Source of the DNA: Gemmatimonadota bacterium
GTDB taxonomy: Bacteria > Gemmatimonadota > Gemmatimonadetes > Gemmatimonadales > GWC2-71-9
Length of the DNA stretch: 64,000 nucleotides
Reading direction: 5' to 3'
Assembly (NCBI GenBank): GCA_003222195.1
Contig: QHVB01000034.1
Coordinates: forward strand, 12,974-76,973
The notes below the pieces were generated by a model. It searched no databases and was not told the origin of the DNA. It saw nothing but the letters and a program-made list of their open reading frames with translations. Shown in pieces: positions 8,320-60,246 of this stretch. The first letter of the stretch is position 1; each line of letters begins with the position of its first letter. The position numbers were made by a program, and so were the translations under genes.

Positions 8320-9107
8320 TTCTTTTTCTTCTTTCGTGCCGGGGGGGGGGAATCGTCGGGGGCCTCGAGGCCGTCGGCGTTTGCGCCCGCGGAAACGGGC
8401 GCGACGTCGGACGCCGACAGGAGCGCCAGATAGGCTTCGACGCGCGGATCCTCGGGCCGCCGAGCCCGCAGCTCCTCCCAGACGGCCCGCGCCGCCAGCC
8501 CGTCGCCCGCGAGGTAGCACGCCATTCCCAGCATCGCGGCGGCATCGAGAAACGACGGTCGCTCGCGCACGATCGTCTGGAAATGCTCATGCGCTTCGAG
8601 CGTGCGGCCGGCTTCGAGCAGCATGCGCCCCAACTTGTACCGCAGGTCGTGAAAACCGGGACCGAGCGTCAGTGCCGCCTCGTACTGGGCGATCGCCTCG
8701 CTGAGCCCGCCCGCTTCGTAATACGCCTGCCCGAGCACCGCGTGCTGGTTCGCCAGCTTCGCCGCGACATGGCCGTGGAAGCCTGCGCGCCGCTCCGAGG
8801 TCACCTGGCGGGCGCGCCGCAGCACGGTGTTCGCTTCCTCTTCGCGACCCAGCTCGTTCAGCACGAGCGCCCGATGAATCAGGGCCTCGATGTAATTGGG
8901 GTTCAGCGCCAGAGCGCGATCGAGCTGCTCCAACGCCTTGTCCGGCTGCCCCGCGAGCGAATACGACAGACCCAGCAGGTGGTGCGCGTCCGCAAACGCG
9001 CGGCCCGTCGCGACGACCTCCTCGAGAAGATGAATCGCGCCGTAATAGTCCTGCAGCTGAAAGCGTTCGTTAGCCTGCTCGACCAGACGTTCGGGACTGA
9101 CGTCCAT
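8316..9107 (-). CDS. TPR-repeat protein with oligo-lysine C-terminus
   Basis: ATG at 9107 ([31 protein letters not shown]). Multiple canonical TPR units. Ends PPPARKKKKK. Confidence 0.7.
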   Translation of the reverse strand: MDVSPERLVEQANERFQLQDYYGAIHLLEEVVATGRAFADAHHLLGLSYSLAGQPDKALEQLDRALALNPNYIEALIHRALVLNELGREEEANTVLRRARQVTSERRAGFHGHVAAKLANQHAVLGQAYYEAGGLSEAIAQYEAALTLGPGFHDLRYKLGRMLLEAGRTLEAHEHFQTIVRERPSFLDAAAMLGMACYLAGDGLAARAVWEELRARRPEDPRVEAYLALLSASDVAPVSAGANADGLEAPDDSPPPARKKKKK

Positions 9108-51778: not shown

Positions 51779-53134
51779 TTACTTCTCCGCGTACTCGTAG
51801 TACTCGATGCCGAGGTGCGTGATCTGCTCCTCGCCCATCATCCAGCGCAGCGTGTTCTTGAGCTTCGTCTGCTGAATGAACAGGTCATGCTCGGCGTAGA
51901 GGCCCTGGGCGAACTGCGGGCTCTTAAAGTAGAAGGAGAGCCACTCCTGAATGCCCGACAGTCCCGCGCGGCCGGCGAGATCGAAGAACAGCGCGAGGTC
52001 GAGCACGATCGGCGCGGCGAGGATCGAGTCGCGGCACAGGAAATCGACCTTGATCTGCATCGGATAGCCGAGCCATCCGAAGATGTCGATGTTGTCCCAC
52101 CCTTCCTTATTATCGCCCCGGGGTGGGTAGTAGTTGATCCGGACCTTGTGATAGACTTTGCCATAGAGCTCCGGATACAAGTCGGGCTGGAGGATGTGCT
52201 CGAGCAGGCCGAGCTTCGACTCCTCCTTCGTCTTGAACGACTCGGGGTCGTCCAGCACTTCACCGTCGCGGTTACCGAGGATGTTGGTGGAATACCAACC
52301 TGACAGGCCCAGCATGCGCGCCTTGAAGGCCGGCGCGAGCACGCTCTTCATCATCGTCTGGCCGGTCTTGAAGTCCTTGCCGCCGATCGGCACATGGCGC
52401 TCGTCGGCCAGCCGCTCCATTACCGGCAAGTCGACCGTGAGGTTGGGCGCGCCGTTCGCGAAGGGCACGTTCTCCATCAGCGCGGCGTATGCGTAGAGCA
52501 TTGACGGCGCGATCGACTGATCGTTCTGCTCCATCGCCTTCTCGAATGCCGCGAGCGATTGATGGGCGGGACCAGGCGTTAGGAACACCTCGGTCGACGC
52601 GCACCACACCACGACCAGGCGATCCAGCTTTGCGCTCTGCTTGAAGTTGCGCATGTCCTCGCGCAGCTGCTCGGCCAGCTCCCGCTTGGTCTTCCCGCGC
52701 TTGACGTTCGTACCCTGCAGGCGCTTCACGTAGTACTGATCGAAGACGGCAGGCATCGGCTTGATACTCTGGAGGAACGGCTTGATCGGCTCGAGGTGCT
52801 CGTGCTGGTCGAGCACGCCGGCCTTCACGGCGGCGGTGTAGGCGTCGTCGGGAATGGGATCCCACGCCGCGAAGACAAGATCGTTGAGGTCCGCGAGCGG
52901 GACGAACTCCTTGATCTTCGGCACTCGCTTCTCGGTGCGCTTGCCGAGGCGGATCGTCGCCATCTGACTGAGCGAGCCGATCGGCAGCGCGCGCCCGCGG
53001 CGCACATTTTCGACCCCGGCGATGAACGTTGTGGACACGGCGCCGAGGCCCACCAGCATCACGCCCAATTTTCCCGTCGCGGGCGCGATCTCGCGCGCGC
53101 CGCCCGTCAAAACCGCTTGATCCCGTCCCATCAA
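51779..53134 (-). CDS. ino1: myo-Inositol-1-phosphate (inositol-3-phosphate) synthase
   Basis: GVMLVGLGAVSTT Rossmann motif, WYSTNILGNRDG (cf. SYNHLGNNDG), CRDSILAAPIVLDL (cf. CEDSLLAAPIILDL). Confidence 0.85.
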   Translation of the reverse strand: MMGRDQAVLTGGAREIAPATGKLGVMLVGLGAVSTTFIAGVENVRRGRALPIGSLSQMATIRLGKRTEKRVPKIKEFVPLADLNDLVFAAWDPIPDDAYTAAVKAGVLDQHEHLEPIKPFLQSIKPMPAVFDQYYVKRLQGTNVKRGKTKRELAEQLREDMRNFKQSAKLDRLVVVWCASTEVFLTPGPAHQSLAAFEKAMEQNDQSIAPSMLYAYAALMENVPFANGAPNLTVDLPVMERLADERHVPIGGKDFKTGQTMMKSVLAPAFKARMLGLSGWYSTNILGNRDGEVLDDPESFKTKEESKLGLLEHILQPDLYPELYGKVYHKVRINYYPPRGDNKEGWDNIDIFGWLGYPMQIKVDFLCRDSILAAPIVLDLALFFDLAGRAGLSGIQEWLSFYFKSPQFAQGLYAEHDLFIQQTKLKNTLRWMMGEEQITHLGIEYYEYAEK

Positions 53135-53829
53135 TGTCCTTTGCGGCGTGCGGCCGCCATTCCAGGCAACGTCTCACGTTTAGGAACCGGCGAAGGTGGC
53201 GGCGCGCCCCGCGCCACCTGCGCGACATGCACCACCCGTTGGATCACCGTGATCGCGGAGACGAGCGCGAGCACCACCACAATCCAGAATAGCACGACGC
53301 CGGGGCGCCCCGGCCCCGCGCCCAATGCCAGCGCAGGCACTCCGAGCAACAGAATGCGCTCGGCGCGCGGCGCGATGCCGACCTTGTTTTCGACGCCGAG
53401 CGCTTCGGCCCGCGCCCGCGTGTACGATACCAATAACGATGCGACGAGCGCGACCAGCCCGGCCGCGATGGCCCGCGGCTTCATGTCGGCCGGCAACGGG
53501 CCGGTCAAAAAATAGAAGATCAGCCCCGCAAACACCGCCCCCTCGCCCACGCGGTCGAGCGTCGAATCGTAAAACGCGCCGAACGCCGTCATTTTGCCGC
53601 CCTGGCGCGCGACCTGCCCGTCGAGAAGGTCGAATATCCCACTAATCAGCAGCAGCAATCCGCCGAGCCGGATGGCGCCGGTGCCAAACGCCACTCCCGA
53701 GCCGATTACGACTAGTGTGCCGACGGTGGTAATCGCATTCGGATCCACACCGGCCCTGATGAGAAGACGCGCCAGCGGGCCGATCAGCTCGACGAAGCCG
53801 TCCTTGACGCGCTGGGGAATGACGTTCAT
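53131..53829 (-). CDS. CDP-alcohol phosphatidyltransferase (phosphatidylinositol-phosphate synthase-like)
   Basis: DLLDGQVAR...GAFYDSTLDRVGE is the D-x2-DG-x2-AR...G-x3-D-x3-D motif. 4-nt overlap with ino1. Confidence 0.8.
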   Translation of the reverse strand: MNVIPQRVKDGFVELIGPLARLLIRAGVDPNAITTVGTLVVIGSGVAFGTGAIRLGGLLLLISGIFDLLDGQVARQGGKMTAFGAFYDSTLDRVGEGAVFAGLIFYFLTGPLPADMKPRAIAAGLVALVASLLVSYTRARAEALGVENKVGIAPRAERILLLGVPALALGAGPGRPGVVLFWIVVVLALVSAITVIQRVVHVAQVARGAPPPSPVPKRETLPGMAAARRKGH

Positions 53830-53945: not shown

Positions 53946-56060
53946 ATGACCCGCATTCCCTTCCTGCTCGCCATCACCCTTCTCCAACCGGCCCTTGTCG
54001 TCGCCCAGCAAGCATCATCGCCTGCGCCTCCCGCCGACGACCCGTTCGTCTGGCTCGAGGATGTCGAAGCGGCGCGCTCGATGGAATGGGTGAATGCCAA
54101 GAACGCGGCAACCATAGCCGTCCTCGGCCGTGCGCCGCTCTATCAAACGCTCTACGATCGGCTCAAGCAGATCCTCGATTCCAAGGACAAGATCGCCTAC
54201 CCCAACGTCATGGCGAATGCGCTCTACAATTTCTGGAAGGATGCCGACCACGAGCGCGGCATTTGGCGGCGGACGACGTGGGCGAGCTATGGCACTGCGA
54301 GTCCGATATGGGAAACTGTGATCGACCTCGATTCGCTGAGCAAGGCGGAGGGCGTGACGTGGTCTTGGGGTGGCGCGGATTGCCTCGAACCTGAGTACCG
54401 CCGCTGCATCGTCGCCCTGTCGCGCGGCGGCTCGGATGCGACCGAACAGCGCGAGTTCGATGTGACGACGAAGCGATTCGTTGCCAACGGATTCACAGTG
54501 CCGGAGGCGAAGACCAGCACCACCTGGGTCGATGACAACACGCTCCTCGTCGGCACCGATTTCGGGCCTGGCAGCCTGACGACCTCCGGCTACGCGCGAA
54601 TCTTCAAGCTGTGGAAGCGCGGCACGCCGCTCTCCGCCGCGACGACACTGTTCGAGACGCCGGCGGATCATGTCGGGGGGTTTGGCTTCAGCGTCGTTTC
54701 CGGCGGCCGCCGTTACGTGGAAATCGCGGACCGCATCAACTTCTACGAAGGCGCGCAATACGTCTACGATCAGGGGAAGCTCGTCAAGATCGATATCCCC
54801 AAAGACGCCGACTACTATCAGGTCGGCGATCAGTTGATCGTGTACGTCCGCGACCCCTGGACGGTGGCGGGACACACCTGGTCGACTGGAGCGCTGGTCG
54901 CGACGTCCTTCGACAACTTCCTCGCCGGCAAGCGCGACCTCCAGCTCGTGCTGCAGCCCGGTCCGCGCGAAACGATCAATAGCGTTGCGGCGACACGCGA
55001 CTACCTCATCGTTAACGTCCTCAACAATGTGCGGGGCGAGCTCCGGCGCTATCGCTATCAGCAAGGCGCATGGAAGTCGGAAAAGGTGCCCGCCCCCGAT
55101 TTCGGCACCGTCGGTGTCGTCGCCCTGTCGCCGTACGCGAATCGCTACTTCTTCACGTTCACGAACTTCATTCAGCCAACGACACTCTATCTCGCGGAAG
55201 AGAACGGCAGCGTCGCGGAGGTCAAGCGCCTCCCGGCGATGTTCGATGCAGCCGGACTGGTCGTCGATCAGCAGGAAGCGACCTCAGCTGACGGCACGAA
55301 GATCCCGTATTTCGTCGTGCATCGCCGTGACATGAAGCGGGACGGCACCAACCCCACACTGCTCGGCGCCTACGGCGGATTCGAGATTGCCAACACACCG
55401 TCCTACAGCACCCACACCGGCGCGGCGTGGCTCGAGCGCGGCGGGGTCTACGTGCTGGCCAATATTCGGGGCGGCGGCGAGTTCGGACCGCAATGGCACC
55501 GCGCCGGACTGAAGGAGCACCGGCAGCGCATCTACGACGATTTTGCGGCGGTCTCGCAGCAGCTGATCCGGGACAGCATCACCAGCCCGCAGCATCTGGG
55601 AATCCGCGGCGGCTCGAACGGCGGCTTGTTGATGGGCGTCGCGCTCACCCAGCACCCCGAGCTCTATAACGCGGTGCTGATTCAGAATCCGCTTTTGGAT
55701 ATGAAGCGGTACAATCATCTGCTCGCCGGCGCGAGCTGGATGGCGGAGTACGGTGATCCCGACAAGCCGGAGGAGTGGGCCTACATCTCGAAGTATTCGC
55801 CGTATCAGAACCTCAGGCCGGGGACCAAATACCCGACCGTGATGTTCACGACGACGACGCGCGACGACCGCGTGCACCCTGGCCACGCCCGCAAAATGGC
55901 CGCCAAGATGGAATCGATGGGCACGCCGTTCTACTACTTCGAGAACACGGAGGGCGGACACGGCGCGGGGGTCACGAACGCGCAAGTCGCGAAGGAGCTC
56001 GCGCTCACCTACGTCTATCTGTGGCGACAGCTCGGAACGGGGATGGCGGCGATCCCGTAG
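53946..56060 (+). CDS. Secreted prolyl oligopeptidase-family serine peptidase (S9)
   Basis: Signal peptide, beta-propeller region, catalytic domain with GGSNGGLLMG nucleophile elbow and a C-terminal ..GGHG.. His region. Confidence 0.88.
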   Translation: MTRIPFLLAITLLQPALVVAQQASSPAPPADDPFVWLEDVEAARSMEWVNAKNAATIAVLGRAPLYQTLYDRLKQILDSKDKIAYPNVMANALYNFWKDADHERGIWRRTTWASYGTASPIWETVIDLDSLSKAEGVTWSWGGADCLEPEYRRCIVALSRGGSDATEQREFDVTTKRFVANGFTVPEAKTSTTWVDDNTLLVGTDFGPGSLTTSGYARIFKLWKRGTPLSAATTLFETPADHVGGFGFSVVSGGRRYVEIADRINFYEGAQYVYDQGKLVKIDIPKDADYYQVGDQLIVYVRDPWTVAGHTWSTGALVATSFDNFLAGKRDLQLVLQPGPRETINSVAATRDYLIVNVLNNVRGELRRYRYQQGAWKSEKVPAPDFGTVGVVALSPYANRYFFTFTNFIQPTTLYLAEENGSVAEVKRLPAMFDAAGLVVDQQEATSADGTKIPYFVVHRRDMKRDGTNPTLLGAYGGFEIANTPSYSTHTGAAWLERGGVYVLANIRGGGEFGPQWHRAGLKEHRQRIYDDFAAVSQQLIRDSITSPQHLGIRGGSNGGLLMGVALTQHPELYNAVLIQNPLLDMKRYNHLLAGASWMAEYGDPDKPEEWAYISKYSPYQNLRPGTKYPTVMFTTTTRDDRVHPGHARKMAAKMESMGTPFYYFENTEGGHGAGVTNAQVAKELALTYVYLWRQLGTGMAAIP

Positions 56061-56074
56061 ACCTCCTGGGCTGC

Positions 56075-56374
56075 TTAGCGAGGTCTGATGGTTCCGGTGA
56101 CCTCGACGACCACGCGGTAGCCTTCGAGGCGCGCGGGAATTTTGCGTTTCGTCTCCGGATTGGAGTCGGCCAGCAGAACCTTGATGCAGCGCTCGCCGTC
56201 GCACAACCCGACCGCCGTTCCCACGACGCCGGGAATTGCCATCAGGGAATCGGTATGGTCGACGAGCACTTCATCGATGCTCCGAGTGGCCACCGGGGCT
56301 CCCCCGCTGTGAGTGCCGGAACAGGCCGCCACCACTGCGACCAGCAGCACCGCCGCGATCAGACGTCCGATCAC
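56075..56374 (-). CDS. Mini-lipoprotein, paralog of the N-terminal pro-like domain of the adjacent protease
   Basis: GTG start shares 1 nt with the protease TAG (TAGTG). Lipobox VAVVAAC. IPGVVGTAVGLCDGERCIKVLL...VVVEVTGTIRP aligns with protease residues about 86-135 (TPGVVGTAVGFANGHAGVLLLV...VSVSVTGRIMA). Confidence 0.7.
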   Translation of the reverse strand: MIGRLIAAVLLVAVVAACSGTHSGGAPVATRSIDEVLVDHTDSLMAIPGVVGTAVGLCDGERCIKVLLADSNPETKRKIPARLEGYRVVVEVTGTIRPR

Positions 56375-59300
56375 TACTGGCGCTTCACGGTGACCGAGAA
56401 GCCGTTGCTGCTGCCATCCGGATCGTGATTCAGCGACGACTTATACACGTAGCCCGCGAGTGTGATGCCGGTGACCCCGAACGAGACCATCTTCGTCGAA
56501 CTCGGGGACGTCAGGACGACGCTGCAAATCCCACTACTGCCCACCGTCGTCGTGCACACCACGTCGGGGCCGGATCCGTTCCAGAGACCGTGGACGGTCG
56601 CGCCGGTCACGAGATTATGCCTGGAGTCGTGGACGGTGATCTGAACCGTAGCGGTCCAGGTGTTCCCGTTGATCGCGGCAAAGCCGTCGAGATTCCCCAC
56701 GTGGAGGTTCGGCGGGTTGACCGTGATCGCGATCGCGCGGGCGTTGTTGCTGGGGTTGTTGTCGGCAAACATCTGCGTCGCCGTCAGGATGTGCCCGTTC
56801 GTGGCCGCACCGGCGGTGTTCCAGTTGATGGTGCCCGTCGCACTCGCCCCCGCCGCGAGTCCGGGGAATGTCTGCGTGCCAACCGTCACATTGCCGGCCG
56901 TGCCGTCCGTCAGCACGACGGTGAAACTCGTGGTTACAGCCTGCCCTCCCACGTTCTGCACCGTGATCACCACAGGAGCCGTATCGCCTTGCGTCACCGG
57001 GCTGGGCGCGCTAATGCCCGTTAGCGCGAGATCGGCCGGGGGCGGCGCCGGAGGTGCCGGCGGTGGCGGCGGCGGGGGGGGCGGGGGGGGCGGTGGGGGC
57101 GGCGGCGGCGGCGGCGGCGGTGCCATCACCGTGATCGTCGCGGAACCCTGATTGTTGGCGGCGTTTGCGTCCGCCAGGGTCTGGGTAGCTACCAGCTGAT
57201 GTGCACCGACCGCCGCGCCCGTCGTGCTCCAATTGAATGTGCGCGTCGTGTTGCCTGCCACCGGGAGCCCAGGGATCGTCTGCGTGCCGATCGTCACTCC
57301 GGCCGTCGCATCGGTCAGGACGATATCGAAGTTGCTACTGACCGTGAGCCCGCCCACGTTCTGAACGGTGACCGCGATGGCAGCCGTACTCCCTTGCGTC
57401 ACTGACGCAGGCGCTGTCACGCCGCTCACCGCGACATCAGTCACAGGCGGAGTCTGGACGTCGATCCCGATCCCGACGCTGTTGTTCGCCGAGTTGGCGT
57501 CGGCCAGCTTCTGCGTCGCGAACAGCGTGTGACCACTGATCGCCGCGCCGGCGGTGTTCCAGTTGAACGTGCGCGTCGCGCTCACGCCCACGGCGAGACC
57601 CGAGATCGTCTGCGTGCCGAGTACCGCGTTGCCGTACGTCCCATCGGTGAGCACGACGTCGAAGCTGGTGGTGACATCCTGCCCACCCACGTTCTGCACC
57701 GTCACGACGACGGGAACGATGTCGCCCTGTGAGACGCGCGCCGGCCCGGTGACGCCGGTGACCGCGAGATCAGTCGGCGGCGGCGGCGGCGGCGGTGGCG
57801 GCGGGGGCGGCGGCGGCGGCGGCGAGGCCGGCGCAGTCACGTTGATCCCGATCCCGATGCTGTTGTTCGCCGAGTTGGCATCGGCCAGTTTCTGAGTCGC
57901 GAACAGTGTATGCCCGGTGATTGCCGCGCCGGCTGTGTTCCAGTCGAGGGTGCGGGTGACGCTCGCACCGACAGCTAGCCCTGCGATGGTCTGGGTAGCG
58001 ACTGTCGTGCCCGCCCACCCGTCAGTCAGCACCACATCGAAATTGGTCGGGACATCCTGGCCGCCCACGTTCTGCACCGTAACCACGACGTGGGCGGTGT
58101 CTCCCTGAGCCACTGAGCGGGGCCCCGTGATGCCGGTGACGGCGACATCCGTGCCGGGCGGCGGCGGCGGCGGTGGCGGCGGCGGCGGGGGCGCCGACGG
58201 TACGGTCACATTGATCCCGATTCCGATGCTGTTGTTCGCCGAATTGGCATCCGCCAGCTGCTGCGTGGCAAAGAGCGTGTGCCCAGTGATCGCCGCTCCG
58301 GCGGTGTTCCAGGGGACATCGACGGTGGTCGTCGCCCCTACAGCGAGTCCCGCCACGGTTCCCGTACCGACGGTCGGGCCGGCCCAGCCGTCGGTCAGGA
58401 TAACGGCGAAGCTCGCGCCGACGTCCACCTCCCCGACGTTCTGCACCGTGACGACGACGTGCGCCGTGTCTCCCTGCGCCACCGAGCGGGGCCCGGTGAT
58501 GCCCGTCAGAGCGATATCGGTCGGCTTGGGTGTCACCGTGACACCGAACGTGAGCCTGTTGTTCGCGGCATTGTCGTCGGACAGACTCTGCGTCGCCACG
58601 AGAGTGTGCCCGCCCAGCGCGGCGCCGGTCGTATTCCAGCTGAAGACGACCAACGTATTGGCACCAGGCACCAACCCAGCGACCGTCTGCGTGCCGAGCG
58701 TGACGCCAGCCGTCGAGTCCTGCAGGCTGACGGTGAAGCTGCTCGTGACGTTCTGATTGCCGACGTTCGCCACCGTTACGCCGATGTTGACCGTGTGTCC
58801 CACGATGACCGAACCAGCTCCAGTGAATCCCGTTACGGCAACGTCGGTGATCGGGGGAGCGACGGGGATCGTGAGTGAGCGCTGATCGTTACCGGGGCGC
58901 TGGTCCGTCAGGTTGTGGCTGGCCACGAGACTGTGGTCACCCGTGGTCGCCGGCGTCCACGCGAAGGTCAGAGTCGTACTGGCACCCGCGACCAGTCCGG
59001 CGACGGTCTGCGTACCCACGATCACGTGCGCCGTCGTGTCCTGCAGCGTGACGTCGAAGCTGGAGACGTCCTGGTTGCCGAAGTTCTTCACCGTCACCGC
59101 GATGTTGCCCGTCGTGTTTTGCACCAGCGTACTCGGCCCGCTCATACCGATCACCGCGAGGTCGGTCAGTGGGCCCGGTGGCGGCGGCGCAAAGCCGTCG
59201 ACGCTGACGCCGAAGCGGTTGAGCACGAGGTCGATCCGATTGGCGATCGTCACGGACGAGCTTCCCGCGAACAGCAGCCCGACGGGATTGAGATTCGCGT

Positions 59301-60246
59301 CGTCGGTGACGATGAGCGAGCCGGAGTCCCCGCCGCCGCTGAACGTGCCGGGCGAAATGATCAGCTGATCGACGAAGCGCGCGGTCTTGGTGCAGCTGAT
59401 TCCCGAGACTTGATAACACACGGTGACCGTAGCATTGACGCCGGTGATCTGGCCGTGCGTGAGCCGCGTGGTGCGGCCGTATTTCTGCACGTTGAGACCG
59501 AGCAGCGCGTCGCGGTTGTCGAATAAGCCATCGCCGTTGGCATCACCGTAGATCGTCGAGTTCGGCATGCCGTAGCCGTCGTCCGCGGGCACGGCGTTGT
59601 CGAGCAGATCCGTACTGGAAAGCGCGATGGCCGCGTCAATCGTGTTATTCGCGCCGCTAAAGTCGATCGCCTGGAAATCGGTGAGGGTCGCGATCTGGTC
59701 CGCTGCCGTGCCGCCGTCGTACGGACCGGGCTGATACTCCGGATCACCGATCGTGGCGCCGTTCGAGTTCGCGAGGACGTGGTTATTGGAGAGGATGTAG
59801 ACGTGTCCCAACGCATCCCGCACCCGCGCGCCGATCGTCCCGGCCGTGATCGCCGGATGCCCGACCGAGAAACCCAGCGGAGCGGGTCGCTGACGCTGGG
59901 TTGGATCGCTGAACGCCATGATGCGACCGGTGACGCTGACGCTGACTGGCACGCCATCGAGTGCCTGGGGCAGACCGGCAATTCCCGGTCGCTCGACGAG
60001 GAGCAACACGCCGGCGTGTCCGTTTGCGAACCCCACCGCCGTGCCGACGACGCCCGGAGTGTCCAGCAGCTTCGGCGAATGCCGATGCTGCGCCGCAACG
60101 GCGCTCTGGAACTCCGCGGTGAACTGCTGCCCGACATCGGGGGGGCGTGAAACAGAAGGACCGGCCGGAGAATCGCCTGTGTTGTCGAAACAGGCAGCCA
60201 TCACGAAGATGATGGCGACGCACGTCAACGTCCGGCCGGTGATCAT
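56374..60246 (-). CDS. Giant lipoprotein: pro-like domain + chymotrypsin-fold (S1-like) serine peptidase + 7 CARDB domains + C-terminal beta domain
   Basis: MITGRTLTCVAIIFVMAAC lipobox. Candidate His in ILSNNHVLAN and Ser in GGGDSGSLIV. Ca-loop-like DANGDGLFDNRD. Seven roughly 105-aa units with the pattern TD.A.TG......G....V.VTV.N.G...V...F.V.L.D. Proline runs P13, P16 and P21. Confidence 0.85.
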   Translation of the reverse strand: MITGRTLTCVAIIFVMAACFDNTGDSPAGPSVSRPPDVGQQFTAEFQSAVAAQHRHSPKLLDTPGVVGTAVGFANGHAGVLLLVERPGIAGLPQALDGVPVSVSVTGRIMAFSDPTQRQRPAPLGFSVGHPAITAGTIGARVRDALGHVYILSNNHVLANSNGATIGDPEYQPGPYDGGTAADQIATLTDFQAIDFSGANNTIDAAIALSSTDLLDNAVPADDGYGMPNSTIYGDANGDGLFDNRDALLGLNVQKYGRTTRLTHGQITGVNATVTVCYQVSGISCTKTARFVDQLIISPGTFSGGGDSGSLIVTDDANLNPVGLLFAGSSSVTIANRIDLVLNRFGVSVDGFAPPPPGPLTDLAVIGMSGPSTLVQNTTGNIAVTVKNFGNQDVSSFDVTLQDTTAHVIVGTQTVAGLVAGASTTLTFAWTPATTGDHSLVASHNLTDQRPGNDQRSLTIPVAPPITDVAVTGFTGAGSVIVGHTVNIGVTVANVGNQNVTSSFTVSLQDSTAGVTLGTQTVAGLVPGANTLVVFSWNTTGAALGGHTLVATQSLSDDNAANNRLTFGVTVTPKPTDIALTGITGPRSVAQGDTAHVVVTVQNVGEVDVGASFAVILTDGWAGPTVGTGTVAGLAVGATTTVDVPWNTAGAAITGHTLFATQQLADANSANNSIGIGINVTVPSAPPPPPPPPPPPPGTDVAVTGITGPRSVAQGDTAHVVVTVQNVGGQDVPTNFDVVLTDGWAGTTVATQTIAGLAVGASVTRTLDWNTAGAAITGHTLFATQKLADANSANNSIGIGINVTAPASPPPPPPPPPPPPPPPPTDLAVTGVTGPARVSQGDIVPVVVTVQNVGGQDVTTSFDVVLTDGTYGNAVLGTQTISGLAVGVSATRTFNWNTAGAAISGHTLFATQKLADANSANNSVGIGIDVQTPPVTDVAVSGVTAPASVTQGSTAAIAVTVQNVGGLTVSSNFDIVLTDATAGVTIGTQTIPGLPVAGNTTRTFNWSTTGAAVGAHQLVATQTLADANAANNQGSATITVMAPPPPPPPPPPPPPPPPPPPPPAPPAPPPADLALTGISAPSPVTQGDTAPVVITVQNVGGQAVTTSFTVVLTDGTAGNVTVGTQTFPGLAAGASATGTINWNTAGAATNGHILTATQMFADNNPSNNARAIAITVNPPNLHVGNLDGFAAINGNTWTATVQITVHDSRHNLVTGATVHGLWNGSGPDVVCTTTVGSSGICSVVLTSPSSTKMVSFGVTGITLAGYVYKSSLNHDPDGSSNGFSVTVKRQ
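56716..59166 (-). repeat. Tandem array of seven CARDB-coding units with poly-Pro (GGC/GGG-rich) spacers
   Basis: Unit boundaries from the protein: aa 385-487, 490-597, 599-706, 723-829, 849-956, 959-1065, 1096-1201 of the 1314-aa ORF. Units 3-5 share long identical strings. Pro linkers lie at 58156-58194, 57775-57822 and 57037-57120. Confidence 0.85.

Follow-up and report, generated by a model that had tools for sequence, protein, structure and literature searches.

A predicted lipoprotein protease of the chymotrypsin fold and a stand-alone paralogue of its N-terminal domain are encoded side by side in many bacterial phyla

Why would a bacterium encode, immediately behind a protease gene, a second and separate copy of the protease's own N-terminal domain? 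The question is raised by a 64,000-nucleotide (nt) stretch of Gemmatimonadota DNA (contig QHVB01000034.1; the whole stretch is called the window below), in which the gene of a 1,290-amino acid (aa) protein with a serine protease domain runs directly into the gene of a 99-aa protein. The original prediction for this locus had suggested that the small protein acts on the protease in trans, as a foldase or as an inhibitor. Comparison of the two genes with their relatives gave good support for an old, widespread and conserved two-gene module, the small member of which is a candidate regulator of the enzyme. The genes are arranged as follows.

56374..60246, minus strand: gene of the large lipoprotein protease, stop codon included (open reading frame (ORF) list; 1,290 aa from the ATG at 60246)
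56075..56374, minus strand: gene of the small lipoprotein, stop codon included (ORF list; 99 aa from a GTG)
56372..56376, minus strand: TAGTG junction, in which the protease gene's stop codon overlaps by one base with the GTG that opens the small gene

Both ORFs lie where the original prediction had placed them, and the TAGTG overlap was confirmed in the sequence. Translation on the minus strand from the ATG at 60246, a start consistent with the starts of the homologues, yields a large protein beginning with MITGRTLTCVAIIFVMAAC, and the small protein, read from its GTG on the same strand, begins with MIGRLIAAVLLVAVVAAC. At the junction the minus strand reads ...CGCCAGTAGTGATCGGA..., the TAG (56374-56376) and the GTG having one G in common. 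With such a stop/start overlap, the small gene is predicted to be translationally coupled to the protease gene; among relatives the spacing of the two called genes ranges from a 1 nt overlap to a 23 nt gap. A single sigma-70-like site (60318-60290; weak evidence) lies just upstream of the protease gene. Both products are predicted to be bacterial lipoproteins, as a lipobox with an invariant Cys is present in each; the surface display of the protease of which the original prediction spoke is an assumption. The lipoboxes were recognized by pattern and not by a dedicated signal peptidase II predictor (MITGR-TLTCVAIIFVMAA before the Cys in the large protein, MIGR-LIAAVLLVAVVAA before the Cys in the small one), and the hydrophobic N-terminus with the Cys is conserved in the homologues of the large protein. 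The parts of the two proteins that are compared below are these.

60190..60246, minus strand: signal peptide and lipobox of the large protein, residues 1-19, ...FVMAA/C (sequence pattern only)
59911..60126, minus strand: N-terminal alpha/beta domain (N-domain), residues 41-112 (AlphaFold 2 (AF2) model and hhalign alignment to the small family)
59188..59889, minus strand: Nal1-like chymotrypsin-fold serine protease domain, residues 120-353 (profile matches, conserved triad)
59779-59781 (His156), 59635-59637 (Asp204) and 59323-59325 (Ser308), minus strand: catalytic triad (alignment of 66 homologues)
56321-56374, minus strand: signal peptide and lipobox of the small protein, VVAA/C (sequence pattern)
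56078..56284, minus strand: folded domain of the small protein, residues 31-99 (AF2)
56186-56203, minus strand: CDGERC cysteine pair of the small protein (sequence)
56078-56101, minus strand: C-terminal tail of the small protein, ...VTGTIRPR (sequence)

The small protein matched the first 360 aa of the protease in a BLASTP comparison with an E value of 6e-8. When profiles of the two families were aligned with hhalign after removal of the signal peptides, the probability of homology was 99.0% (E 6e-18) in the comparison of close families and rose to 99.6% (E 5e-24) when broad, phylum-wide families were compared. In the AF2 models the N-domain had a predicted local distance difference test score (pLDDT) of 83-95 over approximately residues 40-106, with a helix (40-61) and strands at 66-74, 77-84 and 99-105, and the small protein had a pLDDT of about 95 over residues 30-95, with a helix at 33-45, strands at 50-58 and 61-68, a helix at 73-78 and a strand at 86-92. 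Both follow the same predicted order of elements, namely helix, hairpin, (short helix) and strand. As had been proposed, the small protein and the protease N-domain are true paralogues. In every lineage the N-domains scored far lower than the small proteins against the profile of the small family, and with the N-domain profile it was the other way round; the duplication is old and its two products anciently diverged. The small family alone has a CxxxxC pair where the hairpin turns, an additional short helix, and an Arg that is conserved in its C-terminal tail.

The small family is large and strongly conserved. The close homologues number 518 (92-113 aa), and a full-library profile search gave 2,031 clusters at 50% identity with E<=1e-3, or 685 with E<=1e-10. 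Nearly all of the matches listed are stand-alone proteins of 70-150 aa, a few having two or three tandem domains (two copies, for example, in P0245, P0250, P0281, P0282, P0290 and P0309). Identity across 120 cluster representatives of the small protein was 67-100%, with nearly all core positions conserved, and the whole 70-aa fold is under strong purifying selection. After the last strand the family has the tail x-[IF]-R-[AP]-[LR], the chain nearly always reaching at least 5 residues past TG. The Arg stands at +3 after TG in 95 of 147 family representatives, and the chain ends exactly 5 residues after TG in 100 of the 120 close homologues; many family members carry a variable tail past the motif. 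This tail aligns with the junction between N-domain and protease, the consensus of which is x-[FI]-[VM]-A-[LF]/S-D-P-T. The small family had no relative in Pfam, NCBIfam or PADLOC or among the PDB sequences and corresponded to no known inhibitor family, and the N-domain had no match in Pfam. A known defence system was considered and rejected, PADLOC giving no match.

How regularly the two genes occur together was determined at 80 loci that the protease profile had picked out of genome sequences. Eight of these end before a small gene could appear, leaving 72 informative loci, the start codons of which were not individually curated. A small-domain ORF adjoins the protease gene in 59 of the 72, almost always directly downstream and on the same strand. 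The pair, whose recurrence in related genomes had been put forward as a check of the original prediction, was found in more than 10 phyla, the loci belonging to Gemmatimonadota, Planctomycetota, Bacteroidota, Ignavibacteria, Chloroflexota, Desulfobacterota, Nitrospinota, KSB1, Fibrobacteria, Verrucomicrobiota and Gammaproteobacteria. Approached from the other side, starting from the small gene, a protease gene was present just upstream at all 11 places examined. Three relatives of the small protein on long contigs each follow a gene for a protease with CARDB units, the flanking genes differing, and two more distant small proteins are also encoded downstream of a protease gene. The linkage is independent of the number of CARDB units and holds for minimal proteases of 340-390 aa; protease paralogues of 590 aa are likewise accompanied by a small gene. 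Plasmids carry the pair as well, namely those of Bacillus cereus, in which the small gene lies upstream in the same orientation, and one of Rubrobacter; RefSeq names the proteins 'S1 family peptidase' or 'hypothetical protein'. No third conserved gene accompanied the pair in the neighbourhoods of the relatives examined. A single locus (L061, 3504-5507) has the small gene upstream of and divergent from the protease gene.

What kind of enzyme is the large protein? The prediction of a chymotrypsin-fold peptidase with a conserved triad was borne out: H156 (SNNHVLAN), D204 (NTIDAAIA) and S308 (GGDSGS) are invariant in 66 homologues of 47-88% identity. With the paralogy, the linkage and the triad upheld, the original prediction withstood three of the four conditions that it had named as refuting it. 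None of the Pfam trypsin models scored above its cut-off with the window protease. The best Pfam match of the protease part was Nal1_C (PF25819), with 22.5 bits (E 7e-5) against a gathering cut-off of 26.1; relatives in other phyla pass this cut-off (L079 with 35.9, L088 with 31.2 and L069 with 42.8 bits), and a precomputed PF25819 match is present in some close homologues. The profile of the 66 homologues, when searched against the PDB, found rice NAL1 first (E 6e-6) and then the Streptomyces griseus proteases A and B. In the alignment to NAL1, SNNHV corresponds to TNRHV and GDSGSLI is identical in the two. A Bacillus homologue matched Glu-specific protease, alpha-lytic protease and NAL1 about equally. 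As far as can be judged from these comparisons, the catalytic domain lies at about the same distance from plant NAL1 as from alpha-lytic protease and the streptogrisins, and the large protein is probably a chymotrypsin-fold serine protease that looks active and that belongs to the Nal1-like group, in the neighbourhood of the alpha-lytic/streptogrisin subfamily. Its family is very large: more than 7,900 proteins in the database gave a score, and relatives are encoded in at least 592 stretches of genome sequence. A search with a profile of 56 diverse locus sequences returned close relatives only, the CARDB and C-terminal columns dominating the score.

The N-domain had been likened in the original prediction to the pro regions of alpha-lytic-type proteases. 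Taking into account that the catalytic domain is about as near to alpha-lytic protease and the streptogrisins as to NAL1, this was a reasonable hunch, but it was not established by the searches. The Pfam model Pro_Al_protease (PF02983) gave no match at E<=10 with the N-domain, with the N-terminal 360 aa or with the small protein, nor did it match any of 36 diverse members of the small family. Foldseek aligned the N-domain with the pro regions 2pro_A, 4pro_C and 3pro_C over 72-76 columns (prob 0.72-0.75, rmsd 3.5-4.1 A), with a non-significant E of about 0.5. Among the 50 best Foldseek matches of the small protein there was no 2PRO, 4PRO or 3PRO, the best of the 50 being EscJ (E 0.028). The proteins eS7, uS3, MamM-CTD and EscJ were rejected as homologues, since their weak and recurrent matches look like a generic two-layer alpha/beta similarity. 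The C-terminal part of eS7, a eukaryotic ribosomal protein, recurred with independent methods for both the N-domain and the small protein, at non-significant values (E 0.06-0.7 with sequence profiles, 0.06-0.1 with Foldseek).

The two proteins of a pair are not always predicted to enter the same compartment. A hydrophobic N-terminal export signal is present on nearly every protease of the 80 loci. Among the 59 small partners, 38 have a signal peptide and 21 do not, and in at least 10 of the 21 a stop codon lies so close upstream that a signal peptide would not fit, the export signal of the protease being kept. Of the signal-bearing partners, 31 of 38 have the CxxxxC pair, against 4 of 21 among those that lack a signal (Fisher p 4e-6, a value not corrected for phylogeny and obtained with stop-to-stop ORF limits); among 150 cluster representatives, whose annotated starts are unreliable, the association was not upheld. 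At the loci the distribution of the cysteine pair is that expected for an extracytoplasmic disulfide, which supports the view that the division into partners with and without a signal is real. In Bacillus and Rubrobacter the pairs are fully cytoplasmic.

The reading that we prefer, at somewhat less than even confidence, is that the small protein acts as an N-domain mimic in trans, docking on the catalytic domain and restraining it. A small protein that mimics the N-domain of its cognate protease would dock on the catalytic domain where the cis N-domain or the linker normally packs, and the enzyme would stay latent or restrained for as long as the complex is not released and the small protein stays in place. 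Kept in step with the enzyme by translational coupling, the small protein would be a co-produced cognate inhibitor, or 'guard', in a ratio of roughly 1:1. Since the tail x-[IF]-R-[AP]-[LR] imitates the N-domain/protease junction, we propose, speculatively, that it lies in or near the substrate cleft, in the manner of the C-terminal tails of prodomains. Inhibition is preferred because the partner copies the very domain that adjoins the catalytic domain, because the linkage is tight and ancient, and because conservation is strong. The combination of a cytoplasmic small protein with an exported protease also suits an inhibitor of the guard type, one that would prevent the enzyme from acting too early, and not an extracytoplasmic foldase.

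Several observations weigh against inhibition by an N-domain mimic. The small gene is missing within 2.6-6 kb downstream of the protease gene in 13 of the 72 informative loci, including two from Vibrio and one from Psychromonas, and the counts were made over loci that are not phylogenetically independent. At one locus (L096, 2866-4768; ENA contig ctg306699_2x_l) the pattern of localisation is reversed, as the protease there could not accommodate a signal peptide and is followed by a 255-aa lipoprotein with three tandem small domains (P0246). Foldseek found no significant relative in the PDB for the N-domain or for the small protein, and hence no structural tie to any inhibitor or prodomain family already known; the N-domain is a putative prodomain only, and its cleavage is likewise putative. 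In an AF2 model of residues 1-360, based on 25 homologues of 64-88% identity, pLDDT was below 50 over the protease and only the N-domain was modelled with confidence, the low values being due to the shallow alignment; the top Foldseek match of this model, with its poorly folded protease part, was NAL1 (8pmg_A, E 4e-3, TM 0.18). Finally, in NAL1 itself the domain of four strands and a curved helix that precedes the protease forms the trimer interface in trans, and the oligomerisation is needed for activity (PMC12012508).

This last point is the starting point of another explanation, in which the stand-alone copy completes, caps or tunes a NAL1-like oligomer as an activator or a stoichiometric subunit. 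By analogy such a role is conceivable, and we regard it as rather unlikely. NAL1 is the best match among solved structures and relatives of the window protease pass the Nal1_C cut-off; NAL1, like the Bacillus and Rubrobacter pairs, is cytoplasmic; and small proteins with two or three domains beside a single protease gene could serve a trimer, the three domains of P0246 being a number that would suit a trimeric enzyme. However, for neither the N-domain nor the small family was sequence similarity to the pre-protease region of NAL1 detected, the profile aligning in the catalytic domain only, and NAL1 is not among the 50 structures whose folds match the small protein best. Moreover, a subunit has to be in the compartment of its enzyme, and about one-third of the loci pair an exported protease with a signal-less small protein. 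This mismatch also bears on the foldase of the original prediction, a steric chaperone tethered to the membrane beside a lipoprotein protease that is kinetically trapped during folding. Proteases of the alpha-lytic, streptogrisin and Glu-specific subfamily depend on pro regions for folding; the pro region of alpha-lytic protease is a foldase in cis, and the lipase foldase Lif, an all-helical, membrane-anchored protein of proven function encoded downstream of an exported hydrolase, works in trans. The kinship of the catalytic domain with alpha-lytic protease, the streptogrisins and Glu-specific protease, which is about as close as that with NAL1, and the weak resemblance of the N-domain to 2pro_A, 4pro_C and 3pro_C are consistent with a foldase, as are the lipoboxes on both window proteins, which would co-locate them. 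Yet the fold matches, at E of about 0.5, do not extend to the small protein and Pro_Al_protease has no match, and it is not obvious why a protease that has a copy of the domain in cis should need another in trans; in addition, the 21 of 59 small partners that lack an export signal would not meet their exported proteases at the site of folding. Taken together, these points make a foldase quite unlikely. Still less probable, in our estimate, is some other role, such as that of a decoy or preferred substrate, of a precursor of a processed peptide or of an envelope adaptor, the similarity to the N-domain then being a relic of the duplication. The variable and perhaps trimmable tail that many members carry past the conserved motif, and the mixed localisation, would be in line with such roles, but the constraint covers the whole 70-aa fold and not just a short peptide, the small gene stays very closely linked to the protease gene in different phyla, and no third conserved gene was seen in the neighbourhoods examined.

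The pair has parallels among known systems. The precursors of alpha-lytic protease and the streptogrisins are similar in having a related catalytic domain preceded by an alpha/beta domain, the pro region, which serves as foldase and inhibitor alike and has a weak fold resemblance to the window N-domain; in contrast to them, the window N-domain has no Pro_Al_protease match, its fold match is non-significant and its cleavage is putative. We know of no separately encoded copy of a pro region in the alpha-lytic/streptogrisin family. Lif resembles the small protein as a membrane-anchored partner of an exported hydrolase that is encoded downstream and acts in trans, but its all-helical fold is unrelated and it is not a paralogue of a lipase domain, and many small partners of the window family have no export signal. 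Propeptide-like inhibitors include the MEROPS families I9 and I29 and streptococcal Spi, which is encoded next to SpeB. Another inhibitor of this kind is Plasmodium SUB1-ProM, a stand-alone propeptide-like inhibitor whose gene lies beside that of its subtilase (PMC6993865). As in the window pair, a separate small homologue of the N-terminal domain of a protease is encoded by an adjacent gene; unlike the window pair, these inhibitors belong with subtilases and cysteine proteases, the folds being unrelated, whereas the window protease is chymotrypsin-fold and its partner a candidate inhibitor. The potempins of Tannerella forsythia are lipoproteins of 98-132 aa, co-transcribed beside secreted peptidases that they specifically inhibit, and they protect the cell envelope in this way (PMC9890683). 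They share with the window pair the gene for a lipoprotein of about 100 aa immediately beside a peptidase gene, and they differ in being beta-barrels (OB-fold or eight-stranded), encoded upstream and not paralogous to the peptidase, whereas the window small protein is alpha/beta and encoded downstream. The small protein has the genetic position of a co-encoded inhibitor, standing beside the protease with the TAGTG overlap and in 59 of 72 loci, and the two genes are predicted to be co-expressed. As for NAL1, it shares with the window protein the chymotrypsin-fold His/Asp/Ser order and a small domain directly before the catalytic domain, and it forms a hexameric cage that is needed for activity, no separate small partner being reported in the same paper (PMC12012508). 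The window protein differs from it as a lipoprotein with seven CARDB units and a Nal1_C score of 22.5 against 26.1 bits, and no similarity of the window protein to the N-terminal or ATP-binding domains of NAL1 was detected.

The original prediction knew of no described example of this architecture. This holds for the chymotrypsin-fold protease family: in the literature no description of the protease/small-protein pair was found, and for a chymotrypsin-fold protease neither a stand-alone copy of the N-terminal domain nor an adjacent lipoprotein inhibitor was found described. It does not hold for other clans, since a stand-alone N-domain copy is known for subtilases, as in SUB1-ProM (PMC6993865), and for cysteine proteases, and an adjacent lipoprotein inhibitor is known from the potempins (PMC9890683). 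It is possible, if doubtful, that the small protein founded a phylum-spanning family of regulators by duplication of the N-domain, working through domain mimicry, either with the active site blocked by the tail or with the assembly of an oligomer gated. Should the small protein prove to be a cognate regulator, a new family of inhibitors or regulators of chymotrypsin-fold proteases would be defined, with about 2,000 clusters at 50% identity in more than 10 phyla, and trans inhibition by a copy of the prodomain, so far a property of subtilases and cysteine proteases, would be extended to the chymotrypsin-fold clan. Given the relationship of the catalytic domain to plant NAL1, the rice enzyme might be controlled on a like principle, and the pair may help to clarify how Nal1-type proteases are restrained, including the agronomically important, yield-controlling NAL1. 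For annotation, a name and a context would be provided for a frequent 'hypothetical protein' of about 100 aa. Pairs are present in cultivable hosts (on plasmids of Bacillus cereus and B. thuringiensis, in Rubrobacter radiotolerans and in Oceanimonas marisflavi), which makes the question directly testable. Minimal pairs among them are WP_061656737.1 with WP_233937128.1 in B. cereus, WP_041339327.1 with WP_051590075.1 in Rubrobacter, and the O. marisflavi pair in NZ_QAGM01000032.1.

The remaining parts of the large protein are the following.

59506..59547, minus strand: single EF-hand/dockerin-like calcium-loop insert, residues 234-247, GDANGDGLFDNRDA (phmmer against the dockerin repeat)
56710..59166, minus strand: seven CARDB units, residues 361-1179 (Pfam PF07705, seven stretches, E 3.8e-50)
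58156-58191, 57775-57822 and 57058-57120, minus strand: three poly-proline linkers, residues 686-697, 809-824 and 1043-1063 (mapped in the sequence)
56377..56709, minus strand: C-terminal beta domain, residues 1180-1290 (sub-threshold Pfam matches Invasin_D3 (E 4.9e-5) and Big_1)

The CARDB model (PF07705) scored 168.7 bits against a gathering cut-off of 22.7, with units starting at residues 361, 467, 576, 699, 825, 936 and 1071. Of the seven CARDB units on poly-proline stalks that had been predicted, all seven units were present, but a stalk under every unit was an overstatement, because poly-proline runs precede units 4, 5 and 7 only. In the DNA the linkers correspond to (CCG)n tracts, nearly perfect and 12-28 repeats long (57037-57120, 57775-57824 and 58157-58193). 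Over units 3-5 there is a tandem repeat in the DNA (369-381 nt, approximately 2.3-2.8 copies, 76-78% match). The homologues contain from none to many CARDB units and range from 340 to 1,481 aa, the minimal forms of 340 aa consisting of the N-domain and the protease. The (CCG)n tracts, the tandem repeat and the variable numbers of units suggest rapid expansion and contraction, and errors in the assembly of metagenome-assembled genomes are perhaps also behind the variability of this region. At two loci (L019 and L040) the protease ORFs are broken.

The insert in the catalytic domain, described in the original prediction as dockerin- or EF-like, contains one calcium loop: GDANGDGLFDNRDA matched a single loop of dockerin, of the form DxNxDGxxD, with E 0.016 in phmmer. 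A functional type I dockerin was rejected, since two tandem segments are required and the second is missing. The loop (residues 234-247) is absent from the consensus of distant homologues, and this, together with its being single, indicates a lineage-specific calcium-loop insert rather than a dockerin. The C-terminal domain (110 aa), which is conserved in the 590-aa homologues, is probably Ig-like.

Downstream of the pair, a secreted S9 prolyl oligopeptidase of 704 aa with a signal peptide is encoded on the plus strand (53946-56060), ending 14 nt from the stop codon of the small gene; the ORF list confirmed the convergence that had been noted before. This adjacency is kept in the nearest relatives only (L007-L009) and is not seen in L001 or L004, for which reason the S9 peptidase was rejected as a third member and placed outside the module. 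In L001 an extra 88-aa gene (8373-8639), to which no function was assigned, follows the small gene and does not match the small-domain profile. In two of the plasmid loci a sulP sulfate-permease gene adjoins the pair (L097, B. cereus NZ_CP090087.1, 1-1703; L098, Rubrobacter NZ_CP007516.1, 3790-5493); the adjacency in hosts from Bacillota and Actinomycetota may be a coincidence or may reflect a shared mobile or functional context.

The protease domain (59167-59949) matched PHROG 20754, annotated 'protease', with E 7e-40. In tblastn searches it matched, at 30-32% identity, an uncultured phage of 484 kb and a 'putative serine protease' of Aeropyrum coil-shaped virus, and no relative of the small protein was found in the phage records. 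Elsewhere in the window, on the minus strand at 51779-53829, an ORF resembling myo-inositol-1-phosphate synthase (451 aa) is followed by one resembling a CDP-alcohol phosphatidyltransferase (232 aa). The syntenic contig L007 has the same Pfam families, and the two ORFs look like a pair for inositol-phospholipid synthesis in a Gemmatimonadales genome.

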